From IMG/VR virus record IMGVR_UViG_2582581241_000004: a stretch of DNA of 47,094 bases. One strand, given 5' to 3'. Both the position numbers and the translations under genes were made by a program. The notes below the pieces were generated by a model that did no database searches, was not told the DNA's origin, and was given only the letters and a program-made list of their open reading frames with translations. Below are positions 18,137 to 37,439 of the stretch, piece by piece. How positions within the stretch are numbered: position 1 is the stretch's first letter; every line of letters starts with the position of its first letter. The DNA comes from a virus.

Positions 18137-19719
18137 CCAACAGGCTCTATTATGGCGACAACCTCGGCGTCCTGCGCGAGTCGATCAAGGACGAGTCCGT
18201 CGATCTCGTCTACCTCGACCCTCCGTTCAATTCGAACGCCGGCTATAACGTCCTTTTCTCGACGCCGTCGGGCGAAAGGTCGCAGGCGCAGATCGAGGCG
18301 TTCGATGATACATGGCATTGGAACGAATCCGCCGAATTAGCCTTCGAAGAAGTGATGCGGAGCAATCATTCGGAGGCGGCAACGATGATCCGGGCGATGC
18401 GTTCCGCGCTCGGCGAGAACGACATGATGGCCTACCTCGCCATGATGGCCGTGCGCCTGATCGAACTGCACCGCGTCCTGAAGCCGATGGGGTCGCTCTA
18501 CCTCCACTGCGATCCGACGGCGAGCCACTACCTGAAATCGATCTTGGATGCGATCTTCGATCCGACAAACTTCGGGAACGAGATCATATGGAAAAGGCAG
18601 AATGCCAAGGGACTGGCGTTCACGAGGTTCGCGCGCAACCACGATGTGATCCTGCGATACACTCGCTCGGACAAGTGGACGTGGAACGCCCAATACACCG
18701 CGCATGATCCAGAATATGTTCGGCAATTCTACAAGTTCAAGGATGCCGACGGACGCGTCTACCGGCTGGCCGACCTGACCAACCCGAACAAGAACAGACC
18801 GAATCTGACCTACGAATTCCTCGGCGTAACCCGCGTTTGGCGTTGGACGAAAGACAGAATGCAGCAGGCCTACGACGACGGGATTGTCGTGCAAAACAAG
18901 CCGGGTCAGGTTCCATCGTTGAAGAGATACCTCGACGAGCAGGAGGGGAACCCGATCGACGACGTGTGGACCGACATCGTTCCCGTTCAGGCTCAGGCTT
19001 CGGAACGGCTCGGCTATCCGACTCAGAAACCCGTCGCACTGCTCGAGCGCATCATTTCAGCATCGTCCAATCCAGGCGACGTCATTCTCGATCCCTTCTG
19101 CGGGTGCGGGACGACGATACACGCCGCCCAGAAGCTCGGAAGGGAATGGATCGGCATCGACGTCACCCATCTCGCCGTCGCGCTGATCGAAAGACGGATG
19201 AAGGAGGCGTTCCCCGGCCTCAAATACGACGTGTTCGGCGTTCCGACCGACGCCGACGGCGCCAGGGATCTCGCCGAGCGCGACAAGCACGAATTCCAGA
19301 AATGGATCGTCGCCACCATCGGCGGCCAGCCCTACAAGGGCGGCAAGAAAGGCATGGATCGCGGCATCGACGGCTATCTGCATTTCCGCGACGCCGATCG
19401 CCAGCCCCAGTTCGCGATCATCAGCGTGAAGGGCGGCGGCATCAAATCCGGCGACATCCGCGATCTCAAGGGCACTATGGAACGCGAGAAAGCGGCGCTC
19501 GGGATCTTTCTCACGCTCAAGCCGCCGACACGGGAAATGCAGAAGGAGGCGGCCGCCGCCGGCTTCTACGAGACCGGCGGACGGAAATTCCCCCGCATCC
19601 AGATCCTCACCGCCGCCGACATAATCGACGACCGGCGCCCCCAGGTTCCCTTCGGATTCACGGAGTCGTTGAAGAAGGCGAAGGCGGAAACCGAGGGGAC
19701 GCAGGGAACACTGCTTTAG
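18133..19719 (+). CDS. Amino (N6A/N4C) DNA methyltransferase, beta class, with C-terminal Mrr-like domain
   Basis: LYYGDNL, YLDPPF, YPTQKP..LLERII, DPFCGCGTT; tail DRGIDG...IISVKGG. Confidence 0.88.
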   Translation: MTNRLYYGDNLGVLRESIKDESVDLVYLDPPFNSNAGYNVLFSTPSGERSQAQIEAFDDTWHWNESAELAFEEVMRSNHSEAATMIRAMRSALGENDMMAYLAMMAVRLIELHRVLKPMGSLYLHCDPTASHYLKSILDAIFDPTNFGNEIIWKRQNAKGLAFTRFARNHDVILRYTRSDKWTWNAQYTAHDPEYVRQFYKFKDADGRVYRLADLTNPNKNRPNLTYEFLGVTRVWRWTKDRMQQAYDDGIVVQNKPGQVPSLKRYLDEQEGNPIDDVWTDIVPVQAQASERLGYPTQKPVALLERIISASSNPGDVILDPFCGCGTTIHAAQKLGREWIGIDVTHLAVALIERRMKEAFPGLKYDVFGVPTDADGARDLAERDKHEFQKWIVATIGGQPYKGGKKGMDRGIDGYLHFRDADRQPQFAIISVKGGGIKSGDIRDLKGTMEREKAALGIFLTLKPPTREMQKEAAAAGFYETGGRKFPRIQILTAADIIDDRRPQVPFGFTESLKKAKAETEGTQGTLL

Positions 19720-19724
19720 CATCC

Positions 19725-20048
19725 CTACTCCGCCCTCATCGCCCTACAGACGGCCCGCTCCAGCCCGTCCTTCTCCGCCGCCTCGGCCTCCTCCTGCCAC
19801 CGCATGTTTCCCGGCGCGTCCTCGCCGCCGGCGCACAGCGGCTCGTCGTGGTCGATGACGTAGTCAGGACACGGGCCGGTGGTCAGCCCGGTGGACGGAC
19901 ACGGGTTGGCGCGGCGAAAGGCCTCCCGAGCGCGCCCGCTGCGGGACTGGCGGGCGTCGGCGGCGCCGAGGATCCCGACGATCCCGAGAAGGATGAAGAT
20001 GGCGCGGGTCGGAATATTCCGCCGCAAGGATCGGCACACCGATTCCAT
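19725..20048 (-). CDS. HNH-fold protein with predicted signal/membrane segment
   Basis: AIFILLGIVGILGAADA then F.R.NPCP.TG...CP.YVIDH.EPLCAGG.D...NM.WQ. Confidence 0.65.
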   Translation of the reverse strand: MESVCRSLRRNIPTRAIFILLGIVGILGAADARQSRSGRAREAFRRANPCPSTGLTTGPCPDYVIDHDEPLCAGGEDAPGNMRWQEEAEAAEKDGLERAVCRAMRAE

Positions 20049-20062
20049 GACTCCGCGCACGG

Positions 20063-20410
20063 CTACATGCGCGGTTCCATATCGATGTCCATTTCGAGAT
20101 CCTCGTCGATCTTCTTTTCCGCGTCGAGCACCGCGAGCGTCACCTGATGCGCGTAGAGCGCCTTGTAGCGCTCCTTCATCATCGGCAACCCAGACTTCTT
20201 CACCCACGCCATCAACTTCCGCACGAGATCGTCAGAGACCGGATATTTCCCGGCCATGACGCCATTCAGATACTGCGCGGAATAGCCGATCGCCTCGCCC
20301 ATCGCTGGCGCCCATCGCTGGCCGAAGAAGGCCTCGCCGATCCCCCTGATGGCCTCCTTCTTCTTTTCGTCCTTCTTTCCGTCGTCCACGACTCCATCCC
20401 CTTCGAACAT
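20063..20410 (-). CDS. XRE/Cro-like HTH regulator
   Basis: FFGQRWAPAMGEAIGYSAQYLNGVMAGK; divergent from the 20560 operon. Confidence 0.6.
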   Translation of the reverse strand: MFEGDGVVDDGKKDEKKKEAIRGIGEAFFGQRWAPAMGEAIGYSAQYLNGVMAGKYPVSDDLVRKLMAWVKKSGLPMMKERYKALYAHQVTLAVLDAEKKIDEDLEMDIDMEPRM

Positions 20411-20484
20411 ATGGCTTTCCAGTTATGAAAGGTGGCACGGGAGCAGGCTAATTTCAATAGCAAATATTTTTTCGAGGATCGCTA

Positions 20485-20513
20485 TTGCATTCGCTTATCG
20501 AATGCCTTACATT
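20485..20513 (+). promoter_or_regulatory. Sigma70-type promoter with an embedded palindromic operator
   Basis: TTGCAT-N17-TACATT; GCATTCG-CTTAT-CGAATGC spans the -35 and spacer. Confidence 0.6.
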
Positions 20514-20559
20514 CTGTCTCAGAAAGCCGAGGCGACGCCCTGGCTGTTAGAGGCGACAA

Positions 20560-22056
20560 ATGAGCATCGACGACACTCCCTCCACCCTCGCAATCGGACG
20601 CGCCGTCCTCGACGAGAATCTGATGCTCCGGTGTCAGATCGTCTCCGGCGGCGCCATCGGCCCCGGCACGATCCTGAAGGCCACCGGCTACGAGAAGACG
20701 CAACGAATCCCGTGGTCTGAGGATTCCCGATCCAATTCAGGACGTTCCGGGAGCGTGGGATACCGCCTCGAGGCGGACGCGCTCTATGCGCTCCAGCGAA
20801 TCGCCATCGGTTCCTCGAAGGCCGCCGACTTCTGGCTGTCGACCTTCGGCGCGCCGCGACTGCTCGAACGGAAGGAATTCGACGAGCAGCGCGAGTTGTT
20901 GTGGGCCGACCAGTTCGCCGAGGTCCTCCGTCGTCGCATGGAGTTGGCGCGCAGCAACGACATCCGTGACCAGGAGCAGAGACGCGTCCTGGGAGCCCTC
21001 CCGAAGCTGCGGGGCACCGAAAAGCAGATCGCTTGGGCGTCCGATCTCCGCAGGGCTTGGGCACTCGAACTCGTTACCGGCTTCGCGGCGCAGGTCGAAG
21101 CCGAAGAGCGCGGAATCTACGCCGACAGGGTATTCCGGATGGCGCCGGACAGATATGCGGTTTCCGCCGTCACCGGCGCCGGCGGCGACACGCCGGAGGG
21201 GCGCGGCGCGATCATCGACGCGGTAAAGAAGGCCGATCAGGCGAAGTTCTGGATCGACAACCGCGGCGGATTCTCCACCGTCCTCGACGCCGTAATGAAG
21301 GCCGCCGAGCCGGTCCCCGAGGAGGAGATCGTCAGGATCGCCGCCACCGCTCGCCGCGAGCTCGAGGCCAAGGCCGAGGCGACGCTGTCTCCCGAGGATC
21401 CGGACACGACGATCCTCACCGAGATCACGCTCGACGGGAAGGAGCTTCGCGTCAAGTCGGAAGCCTACATCGAGGGGCTGGGCGATGTCCTGAAGCCGCT
21501 CGGTTTCGCGTGGGACAAGGACGCGCGCCGCTGGTCGCGGAAGCTCGGTGCCCTTTCCGACGACCCGATCGACAGGATCGCCGAGACGGCTGCGAAGCTC
21601 GTCGACGCCGGGATGCCGGCGCTGACTTGGGACGAGGAGGCTCGCAGGCGCGTCGTCGCCAATTCCTGGAAGCCCGAAATCCGCAAATGGATCCACGCCT
21701 ACATCGGCAAGAAGGGCTCCACGAAGTTCGGCGTCGTCTATCCCTACGACGAGAACCACTACGAGCAGGCGCGGCGACTGCGCGGCGCGGAATACGTCTC
21801 CAGCGGATTCTTCAAGGTCCCCGTCTCCTCTTACGAAGAGATCGTCGACTTCGCCGAGCAATACGGGTTCGGATTCACCCCTGGCGCCCGCCAACTGATC
21901 GACGCCGCGCGCGCCGCCGACGGCCATCGCATCACGGTGGCGCCGGCCATTCCGGAAATCGCCGTTGCCGCATCCATGCCCGATGTGCCGCTGCCGCTGG
22001 CCGTTCCGACGGACGTGACTATCGACCCCGACCTGCTGGACGACGCGGCGGCGTGA
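20560..22056 (+). CDS. Hypothetical protein (L.GTEKQIAWA motif; possible HARP-like segments)
   Basis: GAGG RBS; LRGTEKQIAWASDLR, AKFWIDNR, GFAWDKDARRW. Confidence 0.65.
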   Translation: MSIDDTPSTLAIGRAVLDENLMLRCQIVSGGAIGPGTILKATGYEKTQRIPWSEDSRSNSGRSGSVGYRLEADALYALQRIAIGSSKAADFWLSTFGAPRLLERKEFDEQRELLWADQFAEVLRRRMELARSNDIRDQEQRRVLGALPKLRGTEKQIAWASDLRRAWALELVTGFAAQVEAEERGIYADRVFRMAPDRYAVSAVTGAGGDTPEGRGAIIDAVKKADQAKFWIDNRGGFSTVLDAVMKAAEPVPEEEIVRIAATARRELEAKAEATLSPEDPDTTILTEITLDGKELRVKSEAYIEGLGDVLKPLGFAWDKDARRWSRKLGALSDDPIDRIAETAAKLVDAGMPALTWDEEARRRVVANSWKPEIRKWIHAYIGKKGSTKFGVVYPYDENHYEQARRLRGAEYVSSGFFKVPVSSYEEIVDFAEQYGFGFTPGARQLIDAARAADGHRITVAPAIPEIAVAASMPDVPLPLAVPTDVTIDPDLLDDAAA

Positions 22057-22114
22057 GTCCGCTGCGGCCAACGACAATTTCGAGTTTCGCGTAACGAGTA
22101 AAGGAGTCCAATCA

Positions 22115-22546
22115 ATGCAGTTTATCGAGCATCTCACCATCACGACGGGCCACACGCGCATGTCGCCGCGCTCCGAGGTGGACGACAAGATCATCCAATT
22201 CATCAGCGACTCCATCGCGTCGGGCGGCGCTCTGGGCGTCGATTGGGCGATCGAAATGATCCGTTCCGACGGCGCCGGATATGTCTTCGACATCCTCTGG
22301 CGTGGCAATCATGCCATCAGATCCTGGATGTGCCTCGACGCCGCTGCGTCCGACAGGATGTGGGCCGAGGCCAACAGCGAAGACCTGATCCTGTTCGCCG
22401 GAACGCCGAAGCAGCCGCGCACCGCGCCGTGGCTCGCCGTCGCGATGACGTGGGACGCGTTGAGAATGCCCTTCAAAATTCAAGCCCAGGCCGGCGATCT
22501 CGAGCGCTGCGTCGCGTGGACCCTCATCGAGTCGCGGGCGCACTGA
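22115..22546 (+). CDS. Hypothetical protein
   Basis: AAGGAG RBS. Confidence 0.6.
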   Translation: MQFIEHLTITTGHTRMSPRSEVDDKIIQFISDSIASGGALGVDWAIEMIRSDGAGYVFDILWRGNHAIRSWMCLDAAASDRMWAEANSEDLILFAGTPKQPRTAPWLAVAMTWDALRMPFKIQAQAGDLERCVAWTLIESRAH

Positions 22547-24000
22547 TGACCTGGACATCGACCACCGCGCTCATGGCGCACCAGATCGATGCCGTCGCGA
22601 AGCTGATTCCGACGCGCATCGGCGCCCTCTTCGCCGATCTCGGAACGGGGAAGAGCCGCATCCTGCTGGAGCTCGCCCGCCTTCGGCAACTGAAATTCAA
22701 CTATCTCGTCTGGTTCTGCCCCGTCAGCGCGATGGAGAACACCCGCCGTGAGATCCTCAAGCACACCGACATTCCCGCCGACATGATCTACGTGTTCGGT
22801 CCGAAGACGAACGTGGAGACCATTCCACTCGACCGCTGCGTCTACATCGTCGGCATCGAGTCGATGCAGTCGTCGAACCGCATCTTTCGCGCCGTCGACA
22901 AGCTCATCACCGAGCAGAGCTACGTCGCCGTCGACGAGAGCACGTATATCAAGGGCGCCTTCTCCCGCAGGACGAAGCGCATCACGGGCCTTTCCGAGCG
23001 CGCCCGTTATCGCTGCGTGATGACCGGCACGCCGCTGACGCAGGGCGCCGTCGATCTCTACGCCCAGATGCGTTTCCTCTCTCCGAAGATCCTCGGCTAC
23101 CAGTCGTTTGGCGCCTTCGGCGCAAATCACCTCGAATATCGGATGGTCCGCATGCCGGGCCGGCGCAATCTGGTCCGCACCGATCATGTCGTGCGGGCTC
23201 ACAATGTCGAGTATCTCGCCGCCAGGATCGCTCCTTATACGTATCAGATCCGAGCCGAAGAATGCCTCGATCTGCCCGGCGCGATCCACGAGACCCGCTG
23301 GTTCGCCATGACCAAGGCGCAGCGCCGTCTCTATGAGCAAGTGAAGGAACAGATCCTCCGCGAGGAGGAAGAGAACATGATGAATCCGATGAATTCCATC
23401 TGGATCTTCAGGCTGTTCTCCGCCCTCCAGGCCGTCATCTGCGGATACCACGGGATTTCCAAGCAGGAAATGGTGCGCGTCGAGCACGATCGCGTCGAGA
23501 ACATGCTCGCCGTCATCTCCGAAATCCCCGAGGACGAGCGCATCGTCGTCTGGAGCAAATACCTCCCGGCGGCCGCCGACATCAAAGCGGCGCTGGAAAA
23601 CCGCTACGGCGCCGGATGCGTCGCCACCTTCACCGGTCCGACGGCGAACACCCGCGAATCCGAGCTCGCGGAATGGAAGGACGGGAAGCGTCGCTTCCTC
23701 GTCGCCACGCAGCAATCCGGAAGCCACGCGCAAACGTGGATCGAGGCGGCCTTCGTCATCTTTTACGCCGATGGATTCAAATTCAGCGAACGCGAGCAGG
23801 CCGAGAAGCGAACGATGCGCTTCGGACAGACTCGGAAGGTCCGCTACGTCACGCTGCGCTGTTCCGACAGCATCGACGAGAAGATCGGATCCGCGATCGG
23901 CGGCAAGCGCGACACGCTGAGGGAGTTCAAGCGCCAGGTCGATGTCTACCGGGCGCAAGGACTCAAGGCGAAGATCGTCGAAGCGATCAAATCCCTGTAA
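22546..24000 (+). CDS. SNF2-family helicase/ATPase
   Basis: ATG 22546; HQ..AV, FADLGTGKS, VAVDEST.IK, MTGTP, DLYAQ.RFL, QAEKR..R.GQ. Confidence 0.88.
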   Translation: MTWTSTTALMAHQIDAVAKLIPTRIGALFADLGTGKSRILLELARLRQLKFNYLVWFCPVSAMENTRREILKHTDIPADMIYVFGPKTNVETIPLDRCVYIVGIESMQSSNRIFRAVDKLITEQSYVAVDESTYIKGAFSRRTKRITGLSERARYRCVMTGTPLTQGAVDLYAQMRFLSPKILGYQSFGAFGANHLEYRMVRMPGRRNLVRTDHVVRAHNVEYLAARIAPYTYQIRAEECLDLPGAIHETRWFAMTKAQRRLYEQVKEQILREEEENMMNPMNSIWIFRLFSALQAVICGYHGISKQEMVRVEHDRVENMLAVISEIPEDERIVVWSKYLPAAADIKAALENRYGAGCVATFTGPTANTRESELAEWKDGKRRFLVATQQSGSHAQTWIEAAFVIFYADGFKFSEREQAEKRTMRFGQTRKVRYVTLRCSDSIDEKIGSAIGGKRDTLREFKRQVDVYRAQGLKAKIVEAIKSL

Positions 24001-25297: not shown

Positions 25298-25480
25298 ATG
25301 TGCACTCATTCATACTCATACACCGTCAACTTCCGCACGATCGAAGGAGAGACGCACTCGAAGGTCTTCGTCGACGACCTCGCCGCTGCGGAATCCTATG
25401 CGACAGAACTGTCGTCGTGCATCGACGTCGATGTCGAATCCATCGAGATCGACGAGCAGGAACTGCTTGGAAATCGCTGA
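25298..25480 (+). CDS. Small acidic hypothetical protein, first gene of the Cas-containing operon
   Basis: AAGGAG RBS, ATG 25298. Confidence 0.55.
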   Translation: MCTHSYSYTVNFRTIEGETHSKVFVDDLAAAESYATELSSCIDVDVESIEIDEQELLGNR

Positions 25481-25493
25481 AACGGACGCCGCC

Positions 25494-26396
25494 ATGATCC
25501 ACCTCGGTCTCACGATCCCCGAAAAGAAGGCCCGCATCGAGGCCTACTGCCGAGAGAACGGCGTCGATCACGTCGTCATGCTCTCGCCGGCCAAGTTCGC
25601 CTTCGAGGTGGACGCGCCGCGCTTCAAGAGCGTCGATTGGCCTGAGACGATCATGTATCGGACGTTCTACCCCTTGCTCAAGGAGATCGACGCCAACACG
25701 CTCGTCGTCGTCAACGAGAGCCTGCGCGATCGCAACCGCAATTGCCTCACCTACAATTGCATGCGGCATTTCCTGTCGCAGACCCGGCGCGTCCTCGTCT
25801 TCCAGTGGCTGCCGCTGATCGAGGACATGAGCGACTTCATGATCCTCTTCGACCTGGCCACCAGTAGCCTCCGAAAGGCGTTCCCTTACGGCACGGATCT
25901 CCTTTCCGAGGTGGAGATCGAGATCGTCGATAGGACGCCCTTCTTCGCCGGCGTCCCTGTCGAGACGGACGCGAAGACCAAGGCCAAATACGCAGCCGAG
26001 CGCGAGAAGATGTTCGCAAACCTCGGCATGGGCGATCCGCACACGATCCCGCGCAATCTCTACCTCATCGGCGGGAAGGCCAAGGCAGCAGCGGCGCCAA
26101 AGACGGCGATCGTCGCGCGCAACTCGCGGCTCAAGATCGACCGGTTGGCGACGTTCCGCCAGGACGCCTATCCGGACGGCCCCTACGCAATGCTGGAGCT
26201 GCCGCACGTCTTCATGGACTTCGCCGATTTCTCGGCGCTGTCGGGGCAGACGGAATTCGACGTGATGCTCGCCGATCTCAAGGTCGACGACTGGTATTTC
26301 CGGCGCTTCAACGCCTGGTCGAAAAGGATCCAAGATGGCTACCGCGATCTACGACAGTTCGGTGGACGTTCTCACGGCCGCGCGCAAGCGGCTTGA
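25494..26396 (+). CDS. Hypothetical protein, possibly an inactivated SF2 helicase-like domain
   Basis: LVVVNES (DExx-like) and F..LP.I.D..DF.IL; no Walker A seen. Confidence 0.5.
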   Translation: MIHLGLTIPEKKARIEAYCRENGVDHVVMLSPAKFAFEVDAPRFKSVDWPETIMYRTFYPLLKEIDANTLVVVNESLRDRNRNCLTYNCMRHFLSQTRRVLVFQWLPLIEDMSDFMILFDLATSSLRKAFPYGTDLLSEVEIEIVDRTPFFAGVPVETDAKTKAKYAAEREKMFANLGMGDPHTIPRNLYLIGGKAKAAAAPKTAIVARNSRLKIDRLATFRQDAYPDGPYAMLELPHVFMDFADFSALSGQTEFDVMLADLKVDDWYFRRFNAWSKRIQDGYRDLRQFGGRSHGRAQAA

Positions 26397-27462
26397 GTTC
26401 GTCTTCGACAATTTCAGGGAGGTCCACGTCTCGATCTCCGGCGGCAAGGATTCGACCGTCCTCGCCCATCTCGCGCTGATCGAGGCGAGGAAGCGCAATC
26501 GCAAGGTCGGCCTGTTCTTCCTCGATGAGGAGGTCGTCTACGAAAGCACGGTCCGCCAGATCGAATATCTGATGGAGCTTTACCCGGAGAACACCAACCG
26601 GCTGTGGCTCCAGATCCCGTTCTGTTTGACCAACGCCGTCTCTCTGACGGAAGGCCAGCTCGTCGCCTGGGAGCCCGGCCGCCACAAGGACTGGATGCGC
26701 CCGAAGAAGGCCTATTCGATCCACGCCGCCCCTTGGGACCGCGAGAAGCAGACCGTCGGCAATAAGTCGAAGGGCTTTGGATTCTACGATGTCATCGAGA
26801 ATTGGGAACGCTGCCATTCCGGCGTCGCCTATCTCGTCGGGATGCGCGCGACGGAACACACGAATCGCTGGCTGGCCGTCGTGCAGCACCCAGTCGATGT
26901 CGGCGGCGAGATGGTCCATTGGGCGACGAAGAACGGCGCGAACGTGAATTTCAACCCGCTCTACGATTGGCAATACTGGGACGTCTGGAAATACATCCAT
27001 CAGGAGAATCTCCGATATTCCCGCGTCTACGACTGGCAGTTCCGCAAGGGCACGCCGTTCCATCAATGCCGTGTCTCGTCGCTGATCCATGAGAAGAGCT
27101 TCCGCTCGCTCTGCGACCTGCCTGAGTTCGAGCCGAAGACCTACGAGCGGCTCTGCGAGCGGATCAAGGGCATCTCGTTCGCGTCCGAGACCGGCAAGGC
27201 GTCGCGCATGTTCGGCGTCTCCAAGCTGCCGAAGAACTACGACTCATGGCGCGGATATCGGGACTTCCTTCTCGCGACGTATCCGGACGCGGAGAAGAAA
27301 GGGATCTTCGTGAAGCGCTTCGCGAAGCATCTCGACAACGACTACGTGGCCCGCCAGCAGTGCCGCCAGCTCGTCCTCAACGACTACGAGAACAATCTTC
27401 CGATCGCGAACAAGGAAGATCCTCGCGTCGCCCTCATCCAATACTATCGGGAGAACCTGTGA
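26335..27462 (+). CDS. ibrA: PAPS reductase (CysH/DndC superfamily), IbrA-like
   Basis: V..AAR.RL...FDNF..V.VSISGGKDS (PP-loop), FFLDEE, VGMRA.E..NR, PLYDW...DVW.YI, Y..VYD, RVS. Confidence 0.8.
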   Translation: MATAIYDSSVDVLTAARKRLEFVFDNFREVHVSISGGKDSTVLAHLALIEARKRNRKVGLFFLDEEVVYESTVRQIEYLMELYPENTNRLWLQIPFCLTNAVSLTEGQLVAWEPGRHKDWMRPKKAYSIHAAPWDREKQTVGNKSKGFGFYDVIENWERCHSGVAYLVGMRATEHTNRWLAVVQHPVDVGGEMVHWATKNGANVNFNPLYDWQYWDVWKYIHQENLRYSRVYDWQFRKGTPFHQCRVSSLIHEKSFRSLCDLPEFEPKTYERLCERIKGISFASETGKASRMFGVSKLPKNYDSWRGYRDFLLATYPDAEKKGIFVKRFAKHLDNDYVARQQCRQLVLNDYENNLPIANKEDPRVALIQYYRENL

Positions 27463-28073
27463 TGAACATCCTTATCGAAAGCGCCGAGCAGTTCAAGACA
27501 ATGCGCGGCAATCTGAAGACTCCGACGATCAAGAGCCGCCACGGGCAGGTTCCCGTCCCGGCGACCGTCACGCTGCTCGTCGCCAGGAGCCTCCTCAAGG
27601 CCAACAACTACAACCCGAACAGCGTCCCAGACGAGAAGATGAAGCTCTTGAAAATGAGCATTCTCGACAACGGATTCTGCTTTCCGGTCGTGACGATCTG
27701 GAGCGACGATGACGAATGCTTCGTCATCGTTGACGGCTTCCATCGATACATGATCACCGGCCCGAAATGGCTGGACATGGAGTTCGTCCCGATCGTCGTC
27801 CTCGATCACGACGTCTCGAAGCGCATGTATGCGACGGTTCAATTCAACAAGGCGCGGGGGACGCATCAGGTCGATCTCGACGCCGACCTGATCCGCGCCC
27901 TGATCGAGCAGGGCAAATCCGAGGACGAGATCTCCGATCACCTCGGCATCGATCTCGACACCATCCACCGCTACAAGCAGCTCACGGGCATCGCGGACCT
28001 CTTCAAGAATTCCGCCTGGTCTCCGAGCTGGAACGCCGTCGAAGGCATTCGCGAGGAGAACATCCATGGTTGA
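27462..28073 (+). CDS. ibrB: ParB/Srx-domain protein, IbrB-like
   Basis: ANNYNPN.V...M.LL..SI..NGF..PVV, IVDGFHR, AT..FN.ARG.H, C-terminal HTH. Confidence 0.8.
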   Translation: MNILIESAEQFKTMRGNLKTPTIKSRHGQVPVPATVTLLVARSLLKANNYNPNSVPDEKMKLLKMSILDNGFCFPVVTIWSDDDECFVIVDGFHRYMITGPKWLDMEFVPIVVLDHDVSKRMYATVQFNKARGTHQVDLDADLIRALIEQGKSEDEISDHLGIDLDTIHRYKQLTGIADLFKNSAWSPSWNAVEGIREENIHG

Positions 28074-28707
28074 GTGGAACTATGGCGGCGCCCATCTGCG
28101 CCACGACATGACCGGCATCATCGAACTGCCGAACGACTCCAAGGTCCAGGTCGCAGATCTGACCAAGGAATTGCCGGAATTCATGATGCTGGCGGACTGC
28201 CTCTTCATCGACCCGCCGTGCAGCAACGGAAACCTGAGGTCTTTTCATACGAAGGCCGACATGGACCTGATGTACGAGTTCAAGGATTTCGAGGAGGCGC
28301 TGTTCCGACGGATCGAGACGATCGGGCCGAGGGACGTCTTCATCGAGGTCTTCAAGTCGAACAAGGCGTCGTTCATCGAGCGGCTGGAGAAGCTCTACGG
28401 CTCGGTCCGCGTCCACGACAGCTTCTACTACAACAAGCCGGCCAACAGATGCTGGATCCTGCAAGCCAGCAGGCGGCCGACATTCCCGGAATTCGACATC
28501 GGCGGAATCGACGAAGCCAAGGCGATCCAGCGCATCTGCTCGGGCTTCGAATTCGACACCATCGGCGACCTCTGCATGGGCAAGGGACTCGTCGGCAAGC
28601 ACGCCTATCTCGCGGGACGGCGGTTCGTCGGAACGGAACTCAATCGCAAGCGCCTCGCCGTCCTGGTCGATTTCATCCGCGAGCAGGAGACGAAGAAGGC
28701 CGCGTGA
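28066..28707 (+). CDS. Small amino-methyltransferase-like protein
   Basis: FIDPPC followed by GDLCMGKG.VG...F.GTELN (SAM-binding motif). Confidence 0.7.
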   Translation: MVEWNYGGAHLRHDMTGIIELPNDSKVQVADLTKELPEFMMLADCLFIDPPCSNGNLRSFHTKADMDLMYEFKDFEEALFRRIETIGPRDVFIEVFKSNKASFIERLEKLYGSVRVHDSFYYNKPANRCWILQASRRPTFPEFDIGGIDEAKAIQRICSGFEFDTIGDLCMGKGLVGKHAYLAGRRFVGTELNRKRLAVLVDFIREQETKKAA

Positions 28708-28742
28708 ATCGACGTTTTCGAGTGAGTGAGTGGAGTTTTTAC

Positions 28743-29654
28743 GTGTTCAACAATAGCAGCACACAATTCGCGTGGAAGATCGCGTCCGGAAATACCGTCT
28801 ACGAACCCCCGATTCCCAAGCGCGGGGAGCGATACGCCGAGGGAGACCGCTGCTGGCTGTGCGGCGGTCCGACCGGCGGCCAGGGATGGCGCAAGGAAGA
28901 CGCCATCGCGGCCACGTTCACAAATCATAACTTGGCGGCCGCCCACGGCGCCGTCGCCGTCTGCCAGTCGTGCACCGCCCTGTCGCGGTCCGAGACGTTT
29001 CAGGGCATCGTCAAGGCGCGGAATCTGGACGTCAAAACGTGGACGCAGGCCGGCTGGCATTCGTACAGCCACTTCTTCGCCGAGCCGAATGTCTACGAAT
29101 GCCCGGTCCCGTCCCGCGTCCGCGAGATCCTGCTGTCGCCGCCGGAAGGACGATGGCTGCTCGGAGTGAATCCGAGCGGCAAGAAGCACACGATATTCCG
29201 CGCTCCGATCTGCACGGGCAAGGAGTGGGGCGTGCAATTCGACGAGGCGCGAATCTATTCGACGACCGACGAATTCGCGGCCTGCCTCGCGGATTTCGAA
29301 CGTATGACCGCGCTCGGATTCTCGAAGGACGACGTCTCCAGCGGACGCCAGAGCCACGGTTCGATCCTGCGCGCCGGCGTCTCCGCATGGGCGTCCGCCG
29401 ATGGCGCGATGAAGATCTGGCGCCGCGAGCGTCCCGACCTCCTCGATCTCGTCGCCTATTGCGCCCGCTCGGCGTCCGCCCATGGCGTCGAATTCAAGGC
29501 GCGGGATTCCCCTCCCCCGCCTGCGGTCGCCGATCCGCCGGCGCCGCCTCCGATCGTCGAACCGGCATCCGTCGAACCGGCGAAACCGAAGCGCGGAAGG
29601 AAGGCGGCGAAGCCCGTCAAGCCGACCAACCCCGTCCAACTGAGTCTGTTTTGA
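28743..29654 (+). CDS. csf1: Type IV Cas large subunit Csf1 (Cas8-like)
   Basis: GTG 28743 after GGAG; CWLCG...FTNH......VCQSC Zn motif, LL.PP, KKH; first gene of the csf cluster. Confidence 0.7.
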   Translation: MFNNSSTQFAWKIASGNTVYEPPIPKRGERYAEGDRCWLCGGPTGGQGWRKEDAIAATFTNHNLAAAHGAVAVCQSCTALSRSETFQGIVKARNLDVKTWTQAGWHSYSHFFAEPNVYECPVPSRVREILLSPPEGRWLLGVNPSGKKHTIFRAPICTGKEWGVQFDEARIYSTTDEFAACLADFERMTALGFSKDDVSSGRQSHGSILRAGVSAWASADGAMKIWRRERPDLLDLVAYCARSASAHGVEFKARDSPPPPAVADPPAPPPIVEPASVEPAKPKRGRKAAKPVKPTNPVQLSLF

Positions 29655-29664
29655 GGAGTCTCTC

Positions 29665-30099
29665 TTGCTCTACAATTTCGACACCCACGACGACCGGCTC
29701 GCCGCAGCCGCGCTCGTCCTCTACGCTGCCTACAAATCCCGCGACCGCCGTCGCTTCGCCGTCTCCACGGACATGTGGGACCGGATCGAGCGCTTCGTGA
29801 AGGACGCGGCGAAGAGATCGCGCACGCTTCCGGCTTTCGTGGAAGCTCTGAAGCCGCGCCTGTGCTGCGGATCGATCTCGCCGCGCTGGCTGTCGGCGGA
29901 TCCCTTCGACGCCGCCTGCGAGCGGCGCGGAACCGAATTCCTCTCGCATCTCCTCGAACGCCACGACGGCGCGGCAGTGGTGCGGAAGGCATACGACGAG
30001 ACGGCCTGCGTCGTCCTTCTCGTTCGTGACCGTCTCGAGCGGGAAAAGCCCGTCGAGTCGAACAGCAACGACGCGATCAACGTGAAGGAGTCTGTGTAA
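29665..30099 (+). CDS. cas11: Type IV-B small subunit (Cas11-like)
   Basis: About 144 aa, helical, between csf1 and csf2; GAGGAG RBS; positional call. Confidence 0.55.
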   Translation: MLYNFDTHDDRLAAAALVLYAAYKSRDRRRFAVSTDMWDRIERFVKDAAKRSRTLPAFVEALKPRLCCGSISPRWLSADPFDAACERRGTEFLSHLLERHDGAAVVRKAYDETACVVLLVRDRLEREKPVESNSNDAINVKESV

Positions 30100-31091
30100 T
30101 GGGTAACAAATCGTATCGTCTCGACGGCCTTTTCAGCCTGAAGTCGCCGCTTTCGCACATCAGCGAGACCGTCTCGAACTCGTCCTATCTCGTCCAGGAG
30201 CGCGTCATCCAGAATGACGGCAGCGTCGCCGACGTCTTCGTCTACAGCGGAAACGCCTGGCGCGGCCAGCTTCGCGACCTGATGGCCCGCGATCTCCTCG
30301 ACCGCCTCGGCGACGACAACGGCCCGGCGCGCGTCGGCCTGGACACGTTCTCGCTGCTGTTCTCCGGCGGACGCATCGGCGGCACGCAGACGACGGACAT
30401 CGGGCAGGCGCGTCGCCTGCGTTCCGCGCTGCCGTCGATCGCGCTGCTCGGCGGCGGCGTCGGCAATCAGCTTCTCGCCGGCAAGGCCCGCATCGGCAAC
30501 TGCTATCCGCTCTGCCGTGAAGCGTCGGGCATCCTTCCGGCGTCCTTGCGCGCCGACGCCGCCCTCGTCGAATACGCGGACTGCACGCAAAGCAAGGAGC
30601 ATTCGCGCCGCGACGACAAAAAGATCGAGACCATCAACGGCTATCTCTTGCCGGCGGCCGCGATCGAGGAGACGCCGAAGAAGGGGAAGAAAGCCAAGGC
30701 CGACGACGACGCGCCGGCGACCGACCAGATGAGGATCCGCATGGAGCTCCTCTCGCCGGGCGTCAGACTCCACACCTGGATCTCGATCGAGACGGCGACC
30801 GAGGAGGAGCTCGGCTGTCTCGTCGCCGCCCTGAAGCTCTTCTCCGACGCGCCGCACATCGGCGGGCAGTCCGCGAGAGGCTACGGGCTGGTGGACCTGG
30901 ACTACGCGCTGACCGACCGCACGACCGGCGCCGTCGTCGAGCATTTCGTGACCGTCGCCGACGGCGCCTGCATGCTTTCTCCGGAGGCCTCGGAGGCCCT
31001 GGCGGCCTACGGAAGCCATGTCGGCGCGCTGAAGGAAACCGCCATCGCGCCGAACGGCGGCGTCCTGGCTCTTCTGGAGGGCGCGGCGTGA
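30099..31091 (+). CDS. csf2: Type IV Cas7-family backbone Csf2
   Basis: SPLSH, SGNAWRGQLRD, LFSGG, LR..LP.IALLGG.VGNQ...GK, QM...E, IGG.SARGYG. Confidence 0.85.
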   Translation: MGNKSYRLDGLFSLKSPLSHISETVSNSSYLVQERVIQNDGSVADVFVYSGNAWRGQLRDLMARDLLDRLGDDNGPARVGLDTFSLLFSGGRIGGTQTTDIGQARRLRSALPSIALLGGGVGNQLLAGKARIGNCYPLCREASGILPASLRADAALVEYADCTQSKEHSRRDDKKIETINGYLLPAAAIEETPKKGKKAKADDDAPATDQMRIRMELLSPGVRLHTWISIETATEEELGCLVAALKLFSDAPHIGGQSARGYGLVDLDYALTDRTTGAVVEHFVTVADGACMLSPEASEALAAYGSHVGALKETAIAPNGGVLALLEGAA

Positions 31092-31672
31092 GCGTCTACA
31101 TCGCGAAAATCAACACGCCGCGCGGGCCGATCTCCTCGATCCATTGCGCGCTCTACGCCTGCCTGCCGCCAAGGCCGGAGGGAAGCAAGCGTCCCTTCGT
31201 CTGGCGCGTCGCCGACGGCGGACGTTCGATCGTGTTCGTCTCGTCGGAGATGCCGATCGTCCCGCATGCGACGATCTCGCTCGAGGCGGGGCGGTCCTAC
31301 GAGTTCGCCATCACTTATACGCGCGACAAGCACGTCGGAAAGAAGAAAGCCCGTCACCTCGTCGAGATCAACTCGATGCTCGATCTGCGTGATCGCATCT
31401 CGCATTTCGCCGGCTCCTACGGTGGAAGCGTCGGATTCGTGCGCCACGAACACATGCGGACCCTGCATGTGCGCCGGCAGAACGAGCATCTCGAAATGCC
31501 GATCGTGGACGCCTATGGGCGCGTCGTGGTCGAGGATCCCGTCGCGTTCGAGCAGGTCGTCCTCCAGGGCGGACCGGGCGGCGCCAAGGTCTACGGATGC
31601 GGCATGTGGTGGCTGCCGGAAATCATGGAGCCGGCTCTTTCGCCGGCGAAACTCGAAAGGATCGCCGCATGA
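31088..31672 (+). CDS. cas6: Cas6-like RAMP (Cas6e-type G-rich loop)
   Basis: H..LY, FVWR, G...V.DP..F..V...G.GGAKVYGCGM. Confidence 0.6.
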   Translation: MSVYIAKINTPRGPISSIHCALYACLPPRPEGSKRPFVWRVADGGRSIVFVSSEMPIVPHATISLEAGRSYEFAITYTRDKHVGKKKARHLVEINSMLDLRDRISHFAGSYGGSVGFVRHEHMRTLHVRRQNEHLEMPIVDAYGRVVVEDPVAFEQVVLQGGPGGAKVYGCGMWWLPEIMEPALSPAKLERIAA

Positions 31673-32310
31673 AACCGACTCTCATCCGAGCCGTCCTGGT
31701 CAACGGCTACATCACCAGCAACCCCTGGACGCCGACCATCGACGGCATCGTGGCCTACGCCTCGCAGCTTCGAAAGCACGGCGACGAGTTCTATGTCCAC
31801 CGCGATTCCGAAATGGTCCCGGTGGACGACCTGCCGATCGAGAAGGCCAAGTTCAACGGACGCTGGTGGTATTCGTGTTCGACGCCGACGCCCGTCGATT
31901 CCGTCGGACGCCAGAAGCGAAACTACCACCGCCGCTTCGACGACCAGTATGAGGGCTATCTCGTCTCGGGCGTCGGCAAGGTGCTGACCAAGGCCGGCCC
32001 CTACAAAGCGGCTCGCCTCGCCGACACGCGTACGATCTGCCGAGCCGTCGAGTGGCACGTCGTCGGCGACCGTGACGCGCTGCGGGATCTCCTTGGCGAC
32101 ATCGATCAGATCGGAGCCGCCCGCGCCGTCGGCTTCGGCTCCGTCGTCGAGTGGCAGTTCGAAGAGGGCGACGCCGAAATCGCAAGACGCCGGCGTCCGC
32201 TTCCGCTCGAATACGCGGAGAGCATCGGCATCGCAGGGCGCAGGATGTCGTGGGGCATCGTGCCGCCGTCGCGCCTGCCGGAGTCGATCTGCGAGTGCGT
32301 CATGCCGTGA
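31669..32310 (+). CDS. csf3: Type IV Cas5-family Csf3
   Basis: ATG 31669; IDGIVA, LP, WWYSCS, GPYK, W..VGD...LR.LL..I..IG..R..GFG.V..W, RRPLP. Confidence 0.82.
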   Translation: MKPTLIRAVLVNGYITSNPWTPTIDGIVAYASQLRKHGDEFYVHRDSEMVPVDDLPIEKAKFNGRWWYSCSTPTPVDSVGRQKRNYHRRFDDQYEGYLVSGVGKVLTKAGPYKAARLADTRTICRAVEWHVVGDRDALRDLLGDIDQIGAARAVGFGSVVEWQFEEGDAEIARRRRPLPLEYAESIGIAGRRMSWGIVPPSRLPESICECVMP

Positions 32311-32316
32311 ATCATG

Positions 32317-32356
32317 GCCGTCGCCGGGTTCCGACAGGGATTCGGCGACGGCTTTT
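32317..32356 (+). terminator. Intrinsic terminator closing the Cas operon
   Basis: GCCGTCGCCG...CGGCGACGGC perfect 10-bp outer stem followed by TTTT. Confidence 0.65.
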
Positions 32357-32378
32357 CGATGGCGGAACCGCATCCGCA

Positions 32379-32445
32379 TTAACCATTCGTTTCCCAATCC
32401 GCCTCTCGATTCCACACGCTGCGGTCGTATTAACACATCATTTCC
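32379..32445 (+). promoter_or_regulatory. Two CtrA-like boxes upstream of flagellin
   Basis: TTAACCATTCGTTTCC (32379) and TTAACACATCATTTCC (32430); CtrA consensus is TTAA-N7-TTAA, half-site TTAACCAT. Confidence 0.5.
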
Positions 32446-32495
32446 GCGCCGCTGATAATTGAAACGACACGGGTTTCCATAACGAAGTCGATTTC

Positions 32496-33593
32496 ATGTC
32501 CAGCGTTCTCACGAATTCATCCGCGATCACCGCGCTCCAGAACCTGCGCTCGACGCAGTCCGCCCTGGCGGACACACAGCACCGCGTCGCTACCGGCCTC
32601 AAGGTTTCCACCGCCGCCGACAACCCTTCGACATGGGCCGTCGCGGAAACGATGAAATCCGATCGAGGCGTGGTGTCGACGATCGCGGATTCGCTCGGGG
32701 TGAGTTCGCAGATTGTCGGCGTCGCGATGGCGGGCGTCGAAAGCACGATCTCGGTGATGAACCAGATCAAGAGCGCCATCGCACAAGCGGCACAGCCGGG
32801 AGCCGACAAGGCGAAGATTGCCACGAGCCTTGTCGGCCTGAGCGCGCAACTGCGATCGATTATTGCGTCCGCTTCGTTCAACGGAATAAACCTACTCGAC
32901 GGATCGCAGTCCTCGATCAGCTTCGCGTCCGGATACGTCGATGGGAATGGGTCGGGATCGGAACTGCGATCACTGGGCTTCACGCCTGCGGCGTTAGTAG
33001 AAAATAAAACGGCAATTGCATCCTTAAACGCAAGTAACATCACTGTAAACAATGCATATCAAGCTGGACTGCTATCCTCAAGCAACAAATCGGATATATT
33101 CGATTCTGGTAGTTCTTCGAATCTCGGGTGGATTCCAACCTATGGATTCGAGCCAAACGAGTCGATATTTCCAAATAGCCCTACATATTACGATACATAC
33201 TCCTATGATCTGGCCAATAATGTCATAAACGTAAACTACTATGCCAATTTCGCGGAGATATTTCCGGATTCGTCTGGTGGCTCCGGACTTGGAACCGTCT
33301 TGCTCAACCCTGTCATTGAAGGGAAAAGCCTCGATGTAGCCGATGCGGTTATTTCCCGCCTTACCGACTACGCCTCCACGCTCGGCTCGACAAAGACGAC
33401 CATCGACTCCCAGCGCGGCTTCATGCGGACCCTCGGCGACGCCATGGACCAGGGCATCGGCTCGCTGGTGGACGCCGACCTGAACGCGGAATCCACGCGA
33501 TTGCAGGCATTGCAGACGCAGCAGCAGCTAGGCGTCCAGTCGCTATCTATCGCCAACAGGGACGGCGACATCGTCCTGAAGCTGTTCCAGTGA
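32496..33593 (+). CDS. fliC: Flagellin (alphaproteobacterial type)
   Basis: MSSVLTNSSA..ALQ.L...TGLKV..A.DN, ASFNG.NLL, LVDADLN.ES.RLQALQ.QQQLG.Q.LSIAN. Confidence 0.93.
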   Translation: MSSVLTNSSAITALQNLRSTQSALADTQHRVATGLKVSTAADNPSTWAVAETMKSDRGVVSTIADSLGVSSQIVGVAMAGVESTISVMNQIKSAIAQAAQPGADKAKIATSLVGLSAQLRSIIASASFNGINLLDGSQSSISFASGYVDGNGSGSELRSLGFTPAALVENKTAIASLNASNITVNNAYQAGLLSSSNKSDIFDSGSSSNLGWIPTYGFEPNESIFPNSPTYYDTYSYDLANNVINVNYYANFAEIFPDSSGGSGLGTVLLNPVIEGKSLDVADAVISRLTDYASTLGSTKTTIDSQRGFMRTLGDAMDQGIGSLVDADLNAESTRLQALQTQQQLGVQSLSIANRDGDIVLKLFQ

Positions 33594-36200: not shown

Positions 36201-36248
36201 AAAAATCGCTTTGAATTTTCACGCGCATAATTCACCTGTCGAATCATG
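36201..36248 (+). promoter_or_regulatory. Repeated promoter-like motif, copy B, abutting the tnpB ATG
   Basis: 41/48 identical to 3010-3057, including ATTCACCTGTCGAATCATG. Confidence 0.7.
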
Positions 36249-37439
36249 ATCAAGCGCGGCTTCCGATACCGGCTCGACCCGACCGACGAACAGGAACTCA
36301 TGTTCCGGAAGTTCGCGGGCGTCTGCCGCGCCGTCTACAATGCCGCGCTCCATCAACGCGAAGTATTCTGGCGGCAGCATCTTCGGACGGAAGGAAGGCA
36401 CGTTTCCTACGTCGGACAGGCTGCGGAACTGACCGCGCTTCGCGCCGAGTTCGACTGGATCAGGGAAGTCTCCCAAGCCTGCGAGCAGCAGGCGCTGCGC
36501 GACCTCGACAATGCGTTCCAGCGGTTCTTCGACGGCGTTTCCGGCTATCCGACCCCGCGCCGGAAGGGCAAGAACGACGGTTTCCGCTTCCAAGGACGCA
36601 ATGTCGAAGTCGAGAAGCTCAATCGCAATTGGAGCCGGGTGAAGCTTCCGAAGATCGGATGGGTGCGCTTCCGCGACACACGACCAATGGTCGGGAAGCT
36701 GAAGAACGTCACCGTCTCTCTCGACTCGCTCGGATGGCACGTCTCCTTCGCCCGCGAGATCGAGCATGAAGCTCCGGCGAATATCGCGCCCGCAGTCGGC
36801 ATCGATAGAGGAGTCGCCAATTCCATCGCCATGTCGACCGGCGAAATGGATTCGATCGGCAAGGAGCGGCTCGCCGTCCTCGACCGGCGTCGCAGGAAGC
36901 ACCAGCGCGATCTGTCCCGGCGCAAGCGCGGATCGCAGCGCTACGGCAAGACCCGCAAGCGGGTCGCCGCCGTCGCCGCCAAGGGGGCTCGCGTCCGCGA
37001 GCATTTCAACCATGTCCGGACGACGCGCATCGTGCGGAACTTCGGCACGGTCTGCATCGAGGATCTGAACATCGCGAACATGACGGCGTCCGCGAAGGGC
37101 ACGGTCGAAGAACCGGGAAAGAACGTCGCGCAAAAGGCGGGACTGAACCGCTCCATCCTCGAGCAGGGTTGGGGTCAATTCGAGGAATTCCTCACCTACA
37201 AGCTCGCCGCTTCCGGCGGCGTGCTGGTGAAGGTCGATCCGCGCAACACTTCGCGGAAATGCTCCAACTGTGGCCATATCGACGCTCGCAATCGCGAAAG
37301 CCAAGCATCGTTCCGATGCGTCGAATGCGGACACGAGGCTCATGCCGACGTGAATGCGGCCATCAACATTCTTCAGGCCGGAACGCGGCCTTCGGAAGAG
37401 GCGAAAGCCCCACGCCGAAAATCTCGGAAGGCCGCCTAG
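36246..37439 (+). CDS. tnpB: TnpB RNA-guided nuclease, catalytic D-E-D intact
   Basis: YRLDP...G.CR.VYN; GIDRG (RuvC-I D), IEDL (II E), TS..CS.CG/C..CG Zn finger, ADVNAAINI (III D). Confidence 0.93.
   Translation: MIKRGFRYRLDPTDEQELMFRKFAGVCRAVYNAALHQREVFWRQHLRTEGRHVSYVGQAAELTALRAEFDWIREVSQACEQQALRDLDNAFQRFFDGVSGYPTPRRKGKNDGFRFQGRNVEVEKLNRNWSRVKLPKIGWVRFRDTRPMVGKLKNVTVSLDSLGWHVSFAREIEHEAPANIAPAVGIDRGVANSIAMSTGEMDSIGKERLAVLDRRRRKHQRDLSRRKRGSQRYGKTRKRVAAVAAKGARVREHFNHVRTTRIVRNFGTVCIEDLNIANMTASAKGTVEEPGKNVAQKAGLNRSILEQGWGQFEEFLTYKLAASGGVLVKVDPRNTSRKCSNCGHIDARNRESQASFRCVECGHEAHADVNAAINILQAGTRPSEEAKAPRRKSRKAA

Follow-up and report, generated by a model that had tools for sequence, protein, structure and literature searches.

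A divergent Cas6e-family gene between csf2 and csf3 in an array-less, phage-borne type IV-B operon

The window, by which we mean the whole 47,094-nt stretch of DNA analysed here (IMG/VR virus record IMGVR_UViG_2582581241_000004), contains a type IV-B CRISPR-like operon that is phage- or prophage-borne. Nine co-oriented and tightly packed genes, from the gene of a 332-aa protein to csf3, constitute one operon, and a flagellin gene follows downstream. The features of this region are:

25398-26396, plus strand: first long gene of the operon, 332 aa (GC3 frame plot)
26335-27462, plus strand: IbrA-like PAPS-reductase/DUF3440 gene (PF01507, E 1.6e-13; PF11922, E 1.5e-8)
27462-28073, plus strand: ParB-N (IbrB-like) gene (PF02195 and TIGR00180, both weak)
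28066-28707, plus strand: gene of a 213-aa protein (GC3 0.86 in frame)
28704-29654, plus strand: csf1, Cas8-like large subunit (PADLOC Csf1_0_IV, E 2.9e-38; TIGR03114, E 1.7e-8)
29665-30099, plus strand: cas11, type IV small subunit (PADLOC typeIV_Cas11, E 2.1e-71)
30099-31091, plus strand: csf2, Cas7 backbone (PADLOC Csf2_0_IV, E 5.8e-64; TIGR03115, E 1.3e-18)
31088-31672, plus strand: Cas6e-like gene, 194 aa (PF08798, PADLOC Cas6e, AlphaFold2 model, family profile)
31669-32310, plus strand: csf3, Cas5 (PADLOC Csf3_0_IV, E 2.3e-32; TIGR03116, E 2.1e-15)
32316-32352, plus strand: intrinsic terminator of the operon (17-bp perfect stem, four-base GACA loop, UUUU tail)
32430-32459, plus strand: sigma70-like promoter of the flagellin gene, outside the Cas system (TTAACA-18-GATAAT, 10/12)
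32496-33593: flagellin gene (flagellin domains)

The operon thus comprises the type IV-B set of csf1, cas11, csf2, and csf3, and the nearest solved chain to the window Csf2 is the IV-B Csf2 of 7JHY (E 7.7e-16). The start of csf1 is placed at GTG 28704 because this codon forms a 4-bp overlap with the preceding stop, and the ParB-N gene starts at either ATG 27462 or GTG 27459. Neither the 332-aa gene nor the 213-aa gene has a match in Pfam, PHROG, or PADLOC, and no adaptation genes, DinG, or RecD are detected among the operon genes with Pfam, NCBIfam, and PADLOC. An SNF2 ATPase is encoded in the gene cluster upstream of the operon, and genes for a DNA methylase with an Mrr-like domain, TnpB, an endolysin, and a nucleoside deoxyribosyltransferase lie nearby.

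The IbrA-like protein is cysH-like in a broad sense but differs from the canonical CasCysH of 230-260 aa, and it shares only 25% identity with the cysH product encoded after csf3 in the related locus L003 (see below). Its identity to the DUF3440 protein beside the type IV-B locus of the Rhodovastum atsumiense plasmid RHOApd is 30%, and the window ParB-N protein is 36% identical to its Rhodovastum counterpart. The RHOApd locus itself is devoid of Cas6 and has its IbrA/IbrB-like pair nearby. While the IbrA-like gene resides inside the window operon, a canonical CasCysH homologue is not found in the window, the position after csf3 included.

The Cas6e-like gene is embedded in this operon through short overlaps on both sides. 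Its GTG start codon shares the GTGA at 31088-31091 with the csf2 stop, and its TGA shares the ATGA at 31669-31672 with the csf3 start, both read directly in the sequence. Further, GC3 frame analysis identifies the frame of 31088-31672 as coding over its whole length. The 194-aa open reading frame with 4-bp overlaps at either end, as described in the initial annotation, is thus confirmed, and the overlaps with csf2 and csf3 argue for translational coupling of the Cas6e-like gene to its neighbors.

Profile searches place the product in the Cas6e family. It scores 38.4 bits against Pfam PF08798 (cut-off 25) and is again above the cut-off, with 29.9 bits, in a scan of the whole host genome, which reveals no second PF08798 gene. 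PADLOC Cas6e models match with E 1.4e-11. The NCBIfam model TIGR01907, which defines the I-E equivalog, reaches 26.5 bits against a cut-off of 45.2, which marks the protein as a divergent member of the Cas6e family rather than an I-E equivalog. A family profile, for which the window protein was combined with 27 relatives, aligns end to end with E. coli CasE (E 4e-23) and also matches T. thermophilus Cse3 (E 1e-12). The structure prediction suggested in the initial annotation agrees with this assignment: an AlphaFold2 model calculated on the family alignment (pLDDT 96.2, pTM 0.89) displays the two-RRM (ferredoxin-like) RAMP fold, and in a Foldseek comparison with the PDB, the top ~25 matches are all Cas6e chains (E down to 3e-11, TM 0.70-0.74), with other Cas6 families far behind. 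In addition, the ESM Atlas neighbors of the window protein are PF08798 clusters of ~190 aa. Judged by sequence profiles and the predicted model, the product is a true, if divergent, RAMP protein of the Cas6e family.

One shared element is the C-terminal G-rich loop (residues 161-172), which is followed by the family motif WWLPEIM. The likeness of this loop to Cas6e, already remarked upon at first inspection, holds in the alignment, where GGPGGAKVYGCGM of the window protein pairs with GIGPAKSMGCGLL of CasE. Within the loop, the glycines G161, G164, G170, and G172 show no or next to no variation in the family, and K167 is conserved; outside the loop, R35 shows the same constancy. H19 aligns with CasE His20 and is kept in 27 of the 28 family members. 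His20 of E. coli CasE is the catalytic His in helix 1 (Brouns 2008; Cse3 structures), and Tyr23 of T. thermophilus is the Tyr located three residues before the active-site His. This Tyr at His-3 is shared by the Cas6e proteins of E. coli and T. thermophilus and by those family members that are more distant from the window protein, about half of the total. The window protein itself carries S16 instead, and the Tyr is replaced in the GGPG subclade to which it belongs. Cas6e active sites are described as His/Tyr (PMC8175902), and this replacement may weaken catalysis. RNA binding by the window protein is likely given its conserved residues, while RNA cleavage is probable but not assured. Moreover, the family possesses a specific C-terminal WWLPE-x-M motif and a C-terminal helix, both missing from CasE; the tail may serve as a docking site on the Csf complex.

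Members of the family are rare: when 1.84 billion cluster representatives are searched exhaustively with HMMER, ~30 proteins of 150-200 aa are retrieved at E < 1e-3. Those that were looked up are metagenomic singletons, either without a name or annotated as "hypothetical protein". No family members occur in 60 related genomes or, by tblastn, among PLSDB plasmids; a word-indexed homologue search with the window protein returns no relatives, and an alignment-based scan of viral contigs finds no members either. Genomic context is known for the window and for ten loci recovered by motif scans. In eight of these ten, the Cas6e-like gene lies directly after csf2, making nine loci with this arrangement when the window is counted. 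The eight are a Hyphomicrobiaceae MAG (L003), the metagenome contigs L004 to L008, a 56.9-kb IMG/VR viral contig with dnaB and dUTPase upstream (L010), and a Gammaproteobacteria MAG (L011). The two remaining loci were set aside: in L002, a lone copy of the gene lies next to addAB and an IS-like open reading frame, and L012 proved to be a type I-E system of the ordinary kind from Pseudomonas.

The gene order around the Cas6e-like gene is largely constant. csf3 follows it directly in six loci (L003, L004, L005, L006, L007, and L010); in L011, cysH is placed between the Cas6e-like gene and csf3, and the L008 contig ends within the Cas6e-like gene. csf1 and cas11 precede csf2 wherever the contig reaches that far (L003, L006, L007, L010, and L011). 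A PAPS-reductase gene of the CasCysH type, 230-260 aa in length, comes after csf3 in L003, L004, L006, L007, and L010, so that, with L011, six loci carry a canonical CasCysH within the csf operon. A tyrosine integrase is encoded near the locus in L003, L006, and L007. L003 and L007 share 89% identity over exactly the stretch from csf1 to cysH, and this confinement defines csf1 to cysH as the limits of the module.

The same pair of loci allows selection to be estimated. Between L003 and L007, dN/dS amounts to 0.11 for cas6e, 0.12 for csf2, 0.12 for csf3, 0.09 for csf1, and 0.06 for cas11, which indicates that the Cas6e-like gene is as constrained as the core subunits. Over longer distances, the Cas6e-like protein diverges faster than its neighbors, as is evident from the sequence identities between loci (25-43% versus 43-59% for csf2).

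The host genome contains a second copy of the arrangement, in which csf2, an intervening gene, csf3, and flagellin follow one another (C9:890629-894927, IS21-truncated). This copy is ~90% identical to the window copy at the DNA level, and the paralogous homology ends exactly at the cas6e start and restarts 17 nt before the cas6e stop. In place of cas6e, the copy has an unrelated 100-aa open reading frame with the same GTGA and ATGA overlaps. The 100-aa frame is 38% identical (E 3e-7) to an 85-aa frame beside csf3 on Rhodovastum RHOApd. The products of both frames are small 'HAxxRFRERI' proteins of Cas6-less relatives. A weak tblastn match of the 100-aa frame to window positions 32289-32384 was dismissed as not significant and Arg-rich. 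A third kind of occupant is seen on the Gloeobacter morelensis plasmid pGMOR1 (NZ_CP063846.1), which has a Cmx6-family Cas6 between csf2 and csf3 and thereby argues that complexes of this kind accommodate a Cas6-type subunit. Conversely, the absence of the Cas6e-like subunit from two loci, the sister copy in the host genome and the Rhodovastum one, implies that it is dispensable or replaceable. In a Csf2 tree, all these loci group apart from the actinobacterial canonical IV-B systems with support of 100/99, and the window copy and the second copy are sisters; the branching inside the group is without resolution, and the Gloeobacter branch is long. The csf2-csf3 junction thus represents a modular slot that holds a Cas6e-like protein, a Cmx6, a small unrelated protein, or nothing, and this modularity bears on how the type IV subtypes gained and lost crRNA processing.

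A subunit that can be swapped for an unrelated 100-aa protein, that diverges fast, and whose subclade has lost the Tyr partner of the active-site His might be a catalytically inert structural relic that caps the Csf filament through protein contacts or non-specific RNA binding and does not process RNA. The lack of a cognate repeat anywhere in the genome-wide repeat scan and in the viral record (see below) is in line with such a role. We nevertheless regard it as unlikely, since the His persists in 27 of 28 members despite a sequence identity of only ~25%, the G-loop Lys is kept, and dN/dS is as low as in the core subunits.

As had been noted from the outset, no CRISPR array is visible, and repeat searches reveal neither an array nor CRISPR-like repeats in the window. 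Arrays and mini-arrays are also absent from L003, L006, L007, L011, L013, and the full 56.9-kb viral record L010, in which the only repeats are an iteron cluster beside dnaB. A distant array on the same replicon, as envisaged in the initial annotation, does exist: the host genome harbors one array at C9:1805272-1810220, ~770 kb from the locus. Its repeat, present 75 times, is GTCGCCCGTCGCGCACGGGCGTGGATTGGAAC and is typical of type I-C; the processor Cas5d is encoded next to it. A comparison of the 74 spacers with the prophage gives no match. When the whole genome is screened for paired repeats (at least 24 matches in 26 nt, spacing 45-90 nt), nothing is detected within ~75 kb of the window, with the nearest pair at C9:930274; in the rest of the genome, the screen recovers only the I-C array and scattered pairs that are not CRISPR-like, and a single unrepeated hairpin would escape it. 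The search of replicon and host for arrays yielded the I-C array and no mini-array.

These scans bear directly on whether a cognate array or solitary repeat unit elsewhere on the prophage has been overlooked and supplies the substrate. Viral IV-B loci with a mini-array are known in Fuxiviridae (PMC10541130), and most contigs of the related loci are short. We nonetheless judge this highly improbable, as the paired-repeat scan is empty around the window, the long viral record has only its iterons, and no non-coding DNA is conserved between the related loci.

The search for a local RNA gave a similar picture. The initial annotation had pointed to the hairpin behind csf3 and to the following leader as candidate substrates. 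Neither proposal survives closer analysis. Located immediately behind csf3 and made up of a 17-bp stem and a UUUU tail, the 32316-32352 hairpin is best explained as an intrinsic terminator. It is not present in the related loci, where cysH follows csf3, and the paralogous copy in the same genome has a different hairpin and unrelated sequence after csf3, although it is without cas6e. On account of its terminator anatomy and lack of conservation, we reject it as a Cas6 substrate. The "leader" carries the flagellin promoter, and because similarity to the paralogous copy sets in again at 32456, in the region of the promoter's -10 element, it belongs to the flagellin gene. Hairpins of the I-E or I-C kind and Rfam matches are likewise absent from the window. 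We likewise discarded the idea of a non-coding RNA conserved around the loci, because all similarity between loci is coding; a 42-nt piece common to L003 and L007 upstream is the end of a small open reading frame, not an RNA element. Taken together, no RNA partner of the Cas6e-like protein was found.

Because the contig also bears a 75-repeat I-C array that looks active, and because the locus is phage-borne, the host pre-crRNA itself comes into consideration. The phage Cas6e-like protein could cut or sequester it and load it into the Csf complex, thereby disarming immunity or borrowing guides, in keeping with the crRNA-sponge idea proposed for IV-B (PMC8175902, PMC7038947). This scenario is weakened by several observations, and we consider it distinctly improbable. 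The I-C array has its own processor, Cas5d, and a hairpin that differs from the I-E type; the window offers no I-C- or I-E-type hairpin, and no host spacer targets the prophage. Cas1 is not detected in the genome carrying L003, which is a MAG, so that its absence is unproven. Moreover, IV-B shows negative co-occurrence with I-C and I-E (PMC7038947), and co-expressed I-E crRNAs were not loaded by canonical IV-B (PMC7937560).

We favor, with moderate confidence, the reading that the Cas6e-like protein is a fixed subunit of the phage-borne IV-B complex that binds, and probably cleaves, a hairpin RNA supplied in trans. Family membership, fold, the retained His and G-loop, gene order, purifying selection, and the absence of arrays are shown by the analyses above, and we infer RNA binding, cleavage, a capping role, and an RNA source in trans. 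The complex would be composed of the products of csf1, cas11, csf2, the Cas6e-like gene, and csf3. By analogy with Cas6e of Cascade and Cas6/Csf5 of type IV-A, the Cas6e-like protein most likely binds a short RNA stem-loop and probably cuts at its 3' base via the retained His. It would then remain bound as a cap from which the Csf2/Cas11 filament assembles. Since neither an array nor a conserved hairpin is encoded close to any locus, the RNA has to be supplied in trans, by the host or by another part of the phage. Counting against this reading are the lack of an RNA partner, the replaced Tyr, the low identity of the Cas6e-like protein between loci, the dispensability of the subunit, and the canonical IV-B complex, which assembles on heterogeneous RNA without any Cas6 (PMC7937560).

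Extending this proposal, an array-less phage IV-B branch may have kept or recruited a dedicated hairpin endonuclease that carves a defined guide from a non-CRISPR host or phage transcript or from host pre-crRNA, a tentative idea to which we assign a rather low probability. If true, IV-B complexes would be RNA-guided after all, with the Cas6e-like subunit selecting the RNA, and the small 'HAxxRFRERI' protein would be an alternative selector in the Cas6-less relatives. The function of IV-B is a long-standing question, and the solved complex carries heterogeneous RNA. While the Cas6e-like finding does not explain IV-B itself, a IV-B clade with a conserved and selected Cas6-type subunit provides an experimental handle and a practical route to the missing RNA.

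Compared to known systems, the window protein is closest in fold to Cas6e (CasE/Cse3) of E. coli (4TVX, 5CD4, 4DZD) and T. thermophilus (2Y8W, 2Y9H), with which it has the double-RRM architecture in common. It resembles type I-E Cas6e in its length of ~195 aa, in the His at the catalytic position in helix 1, and in the loop G-x-G-x-x-K-x-x-G-x-G, at an overall identity of only 15-20%. In contrast to Cas6e, its loop is longer by one residue (GGPGG), Ser replaces Tyr at His-3, and the WWLPE-x-M motif and C-terminal helix are added. Unlike in type I-E, its partners are Csf rather than Cse proteins, and a I-E array is absent.

Canonical IV-B systems are exemplified by Mycobacterium sp. JS623 (7JHY), Rhodococcus plasmids, and the Skermania phage SPI1. 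The window shares with them csf1, cas11, csf2, and csf3, the lack of an array, adaptation genes, and DinG, the location on a mobile element, and an attached gene of the PAPS-reductase family. In canonical IV-B, however, csf3 follows csf2 directly without Cas6, whereas the window has the Cas6e-like gene in between, and CasCysH comes after csf3, whereas the window instead has the IbrA/IbrB-like pair upstream. IV-B is described as devoid of Cas6 and arrays (PMC8175902, PMC7937560), and the IV-B loci of Rhodococcus, the Skermania phage, and Rhodovastum are without Cas6, in agreement with the premise of the initial annotation that canonical IV-B lacks this protein.

The novelty implied there was overstated, as Cas6 in IV-B had been listed before by Pinilla-Redondo et al. 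2019 (PMC7038947), in the words "rare exceptions: only 12 instances". That mention leaves the Cas6 family, its position, conservation, and context undescribed; the loci are of the same kind as the window locus, array-less with Cas6. The locus on pGMOR1 is like the window in its csf2-cas6-csf3 order and in having no array within 25 kb, with a PAPS reductase (cysH-linked) after csf3. Its 263-aa Cas6 is annotated as I-MYXAN Cas6/Cmx6 and falls outside the Cas6e-like family, only the G-loop being alignable; RefSeq annotates this Gloeobacter cas6 already. On the strength of that annotation and PMC7038947, the existence of IV-B loci with Cas6 is on record. Type IV-A, with its Cas6/Csf5 or, in IV-A3, Cas6e-like protein, is comparable in that Cas6 stays in the Csf complex, and differs from the window in possessing an array and DinG and lacking cas11; the IV-A3 Cas6 profile matches the window protein weakly (22 bits versus 43 for generic Cas6e). 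Against this background, what is new is that phage-borne IV-B loci of Proteobacteria are linked to one coherent Cas6e-like family, whose gene has a fixed position, is under selection, and is replaced in the manner of a cassette, with the His kept and an array in cis consistently absent.

The same genome carries a second, decaying segment consisting of csf2, a 100-aa ORF, csf3, and a flagellin-like gene, in which the 100-aa ORF, unrelated to the Cas6e-like protein, occupies the exact place of the Cas6e-like gene and displays 4-bp overlaps identical to those of the latter. Of csf2, the C-terminal 212 aa are left (93% amino acid identity), csf3 is retained at 96% identity, and an IS21 element cuts off the copy on the upstream side. 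The features are as follows (C9, host genome contig; L009, extract of the same genome; L013, Rhodovastum locus).

C9:890629-894927 (L009:8630-12928), second csf2 - ORF - csf3 - flagellin-like segment
L009:6216-8541, IS21 element (istA and istB)
L009:9265-9567, 100-aa ORF
L013:7601-7858, 85-aa ORF of Rhodovastum atsumiense plasmid RHOApd

Homology links the 100-aa ORF to the 85-aa ORF (38% identity, E 3e-7), which adjoins csf3 in a IV-B locus without Cas6, and both share the start VT-x-HA-x-x-RFRERI. Neither has relatives in Pfam, PADLOC, or databases. This family may represent a small IV-B accessory protein of loci without Cas6.

An orphan Cas6e-like gene with 38% identity to the window protein is found at L002:9923-10561 in an Alphaproteobacteria MAG (JBFWVT010000071.1), immediately preceded by addB and addA; the contig, on which no csf genes were seen, ends with an IS-like HTH ORF that follows the Cas6e-like gene. 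In Gloeobacter morelensis plasmid pGMOR1 (NZ_CP063846.1, 78.5-82.9 kb; L016 and L017), an array-less IV-B locus harbors a Cmx6-type Cas6 (263 aa) flanked by csf2 and csf3, then a PAPS reductase. CRISPR-like repeats were not found within about 25 kb of this locus, and the repeats present at L017:13624-13928 resemble iterons. Five or six palindromic AAACCCCCGCAATAATTACGGGGG units, spaced by ~33 nt, cluster immediately 5' of dnaB at L010:4410-4600 in a viral relative (IMG/VR UViG_2728368988_000001). These repeats are not CRISPR-like and probably constitute a replication-origin iteron set.

The host genome contains a type I-C array (C9:1805272-1810220; 75 repeats of 32 nt, spacers of 33-39 nt), with Cas5d ~5 kb away (C9:1815194-1815820). 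None of its spacers matches the prophage, and the best self-matches elsewhere in the genome comprise merely 25-27 nt with 2-3 mismatches.

Around the window operon, a DNA methylase-Mrr-like domain fusion and a SNF2-family ATPase lie 5' (18133-24000), and TnpB (IS605 OrfB, Cas12f-like TNB domain) lies downstream (36246-37439). In both the window and Rhodovastum, the IV-B genes are accompanied by an IbrA-like protein (PAPS reductase plus DUF3440) and an IbrB-like ParB-N protein, encoded within the same operon in the window (26335-28073) and nearby on the opposite strand in Rhodovastum (L013:10050-12821). The window locus lacks the canonical cysH-type PAPS reductase CasCysH, whereas its relatives carry CasCysH 3' of csf3.
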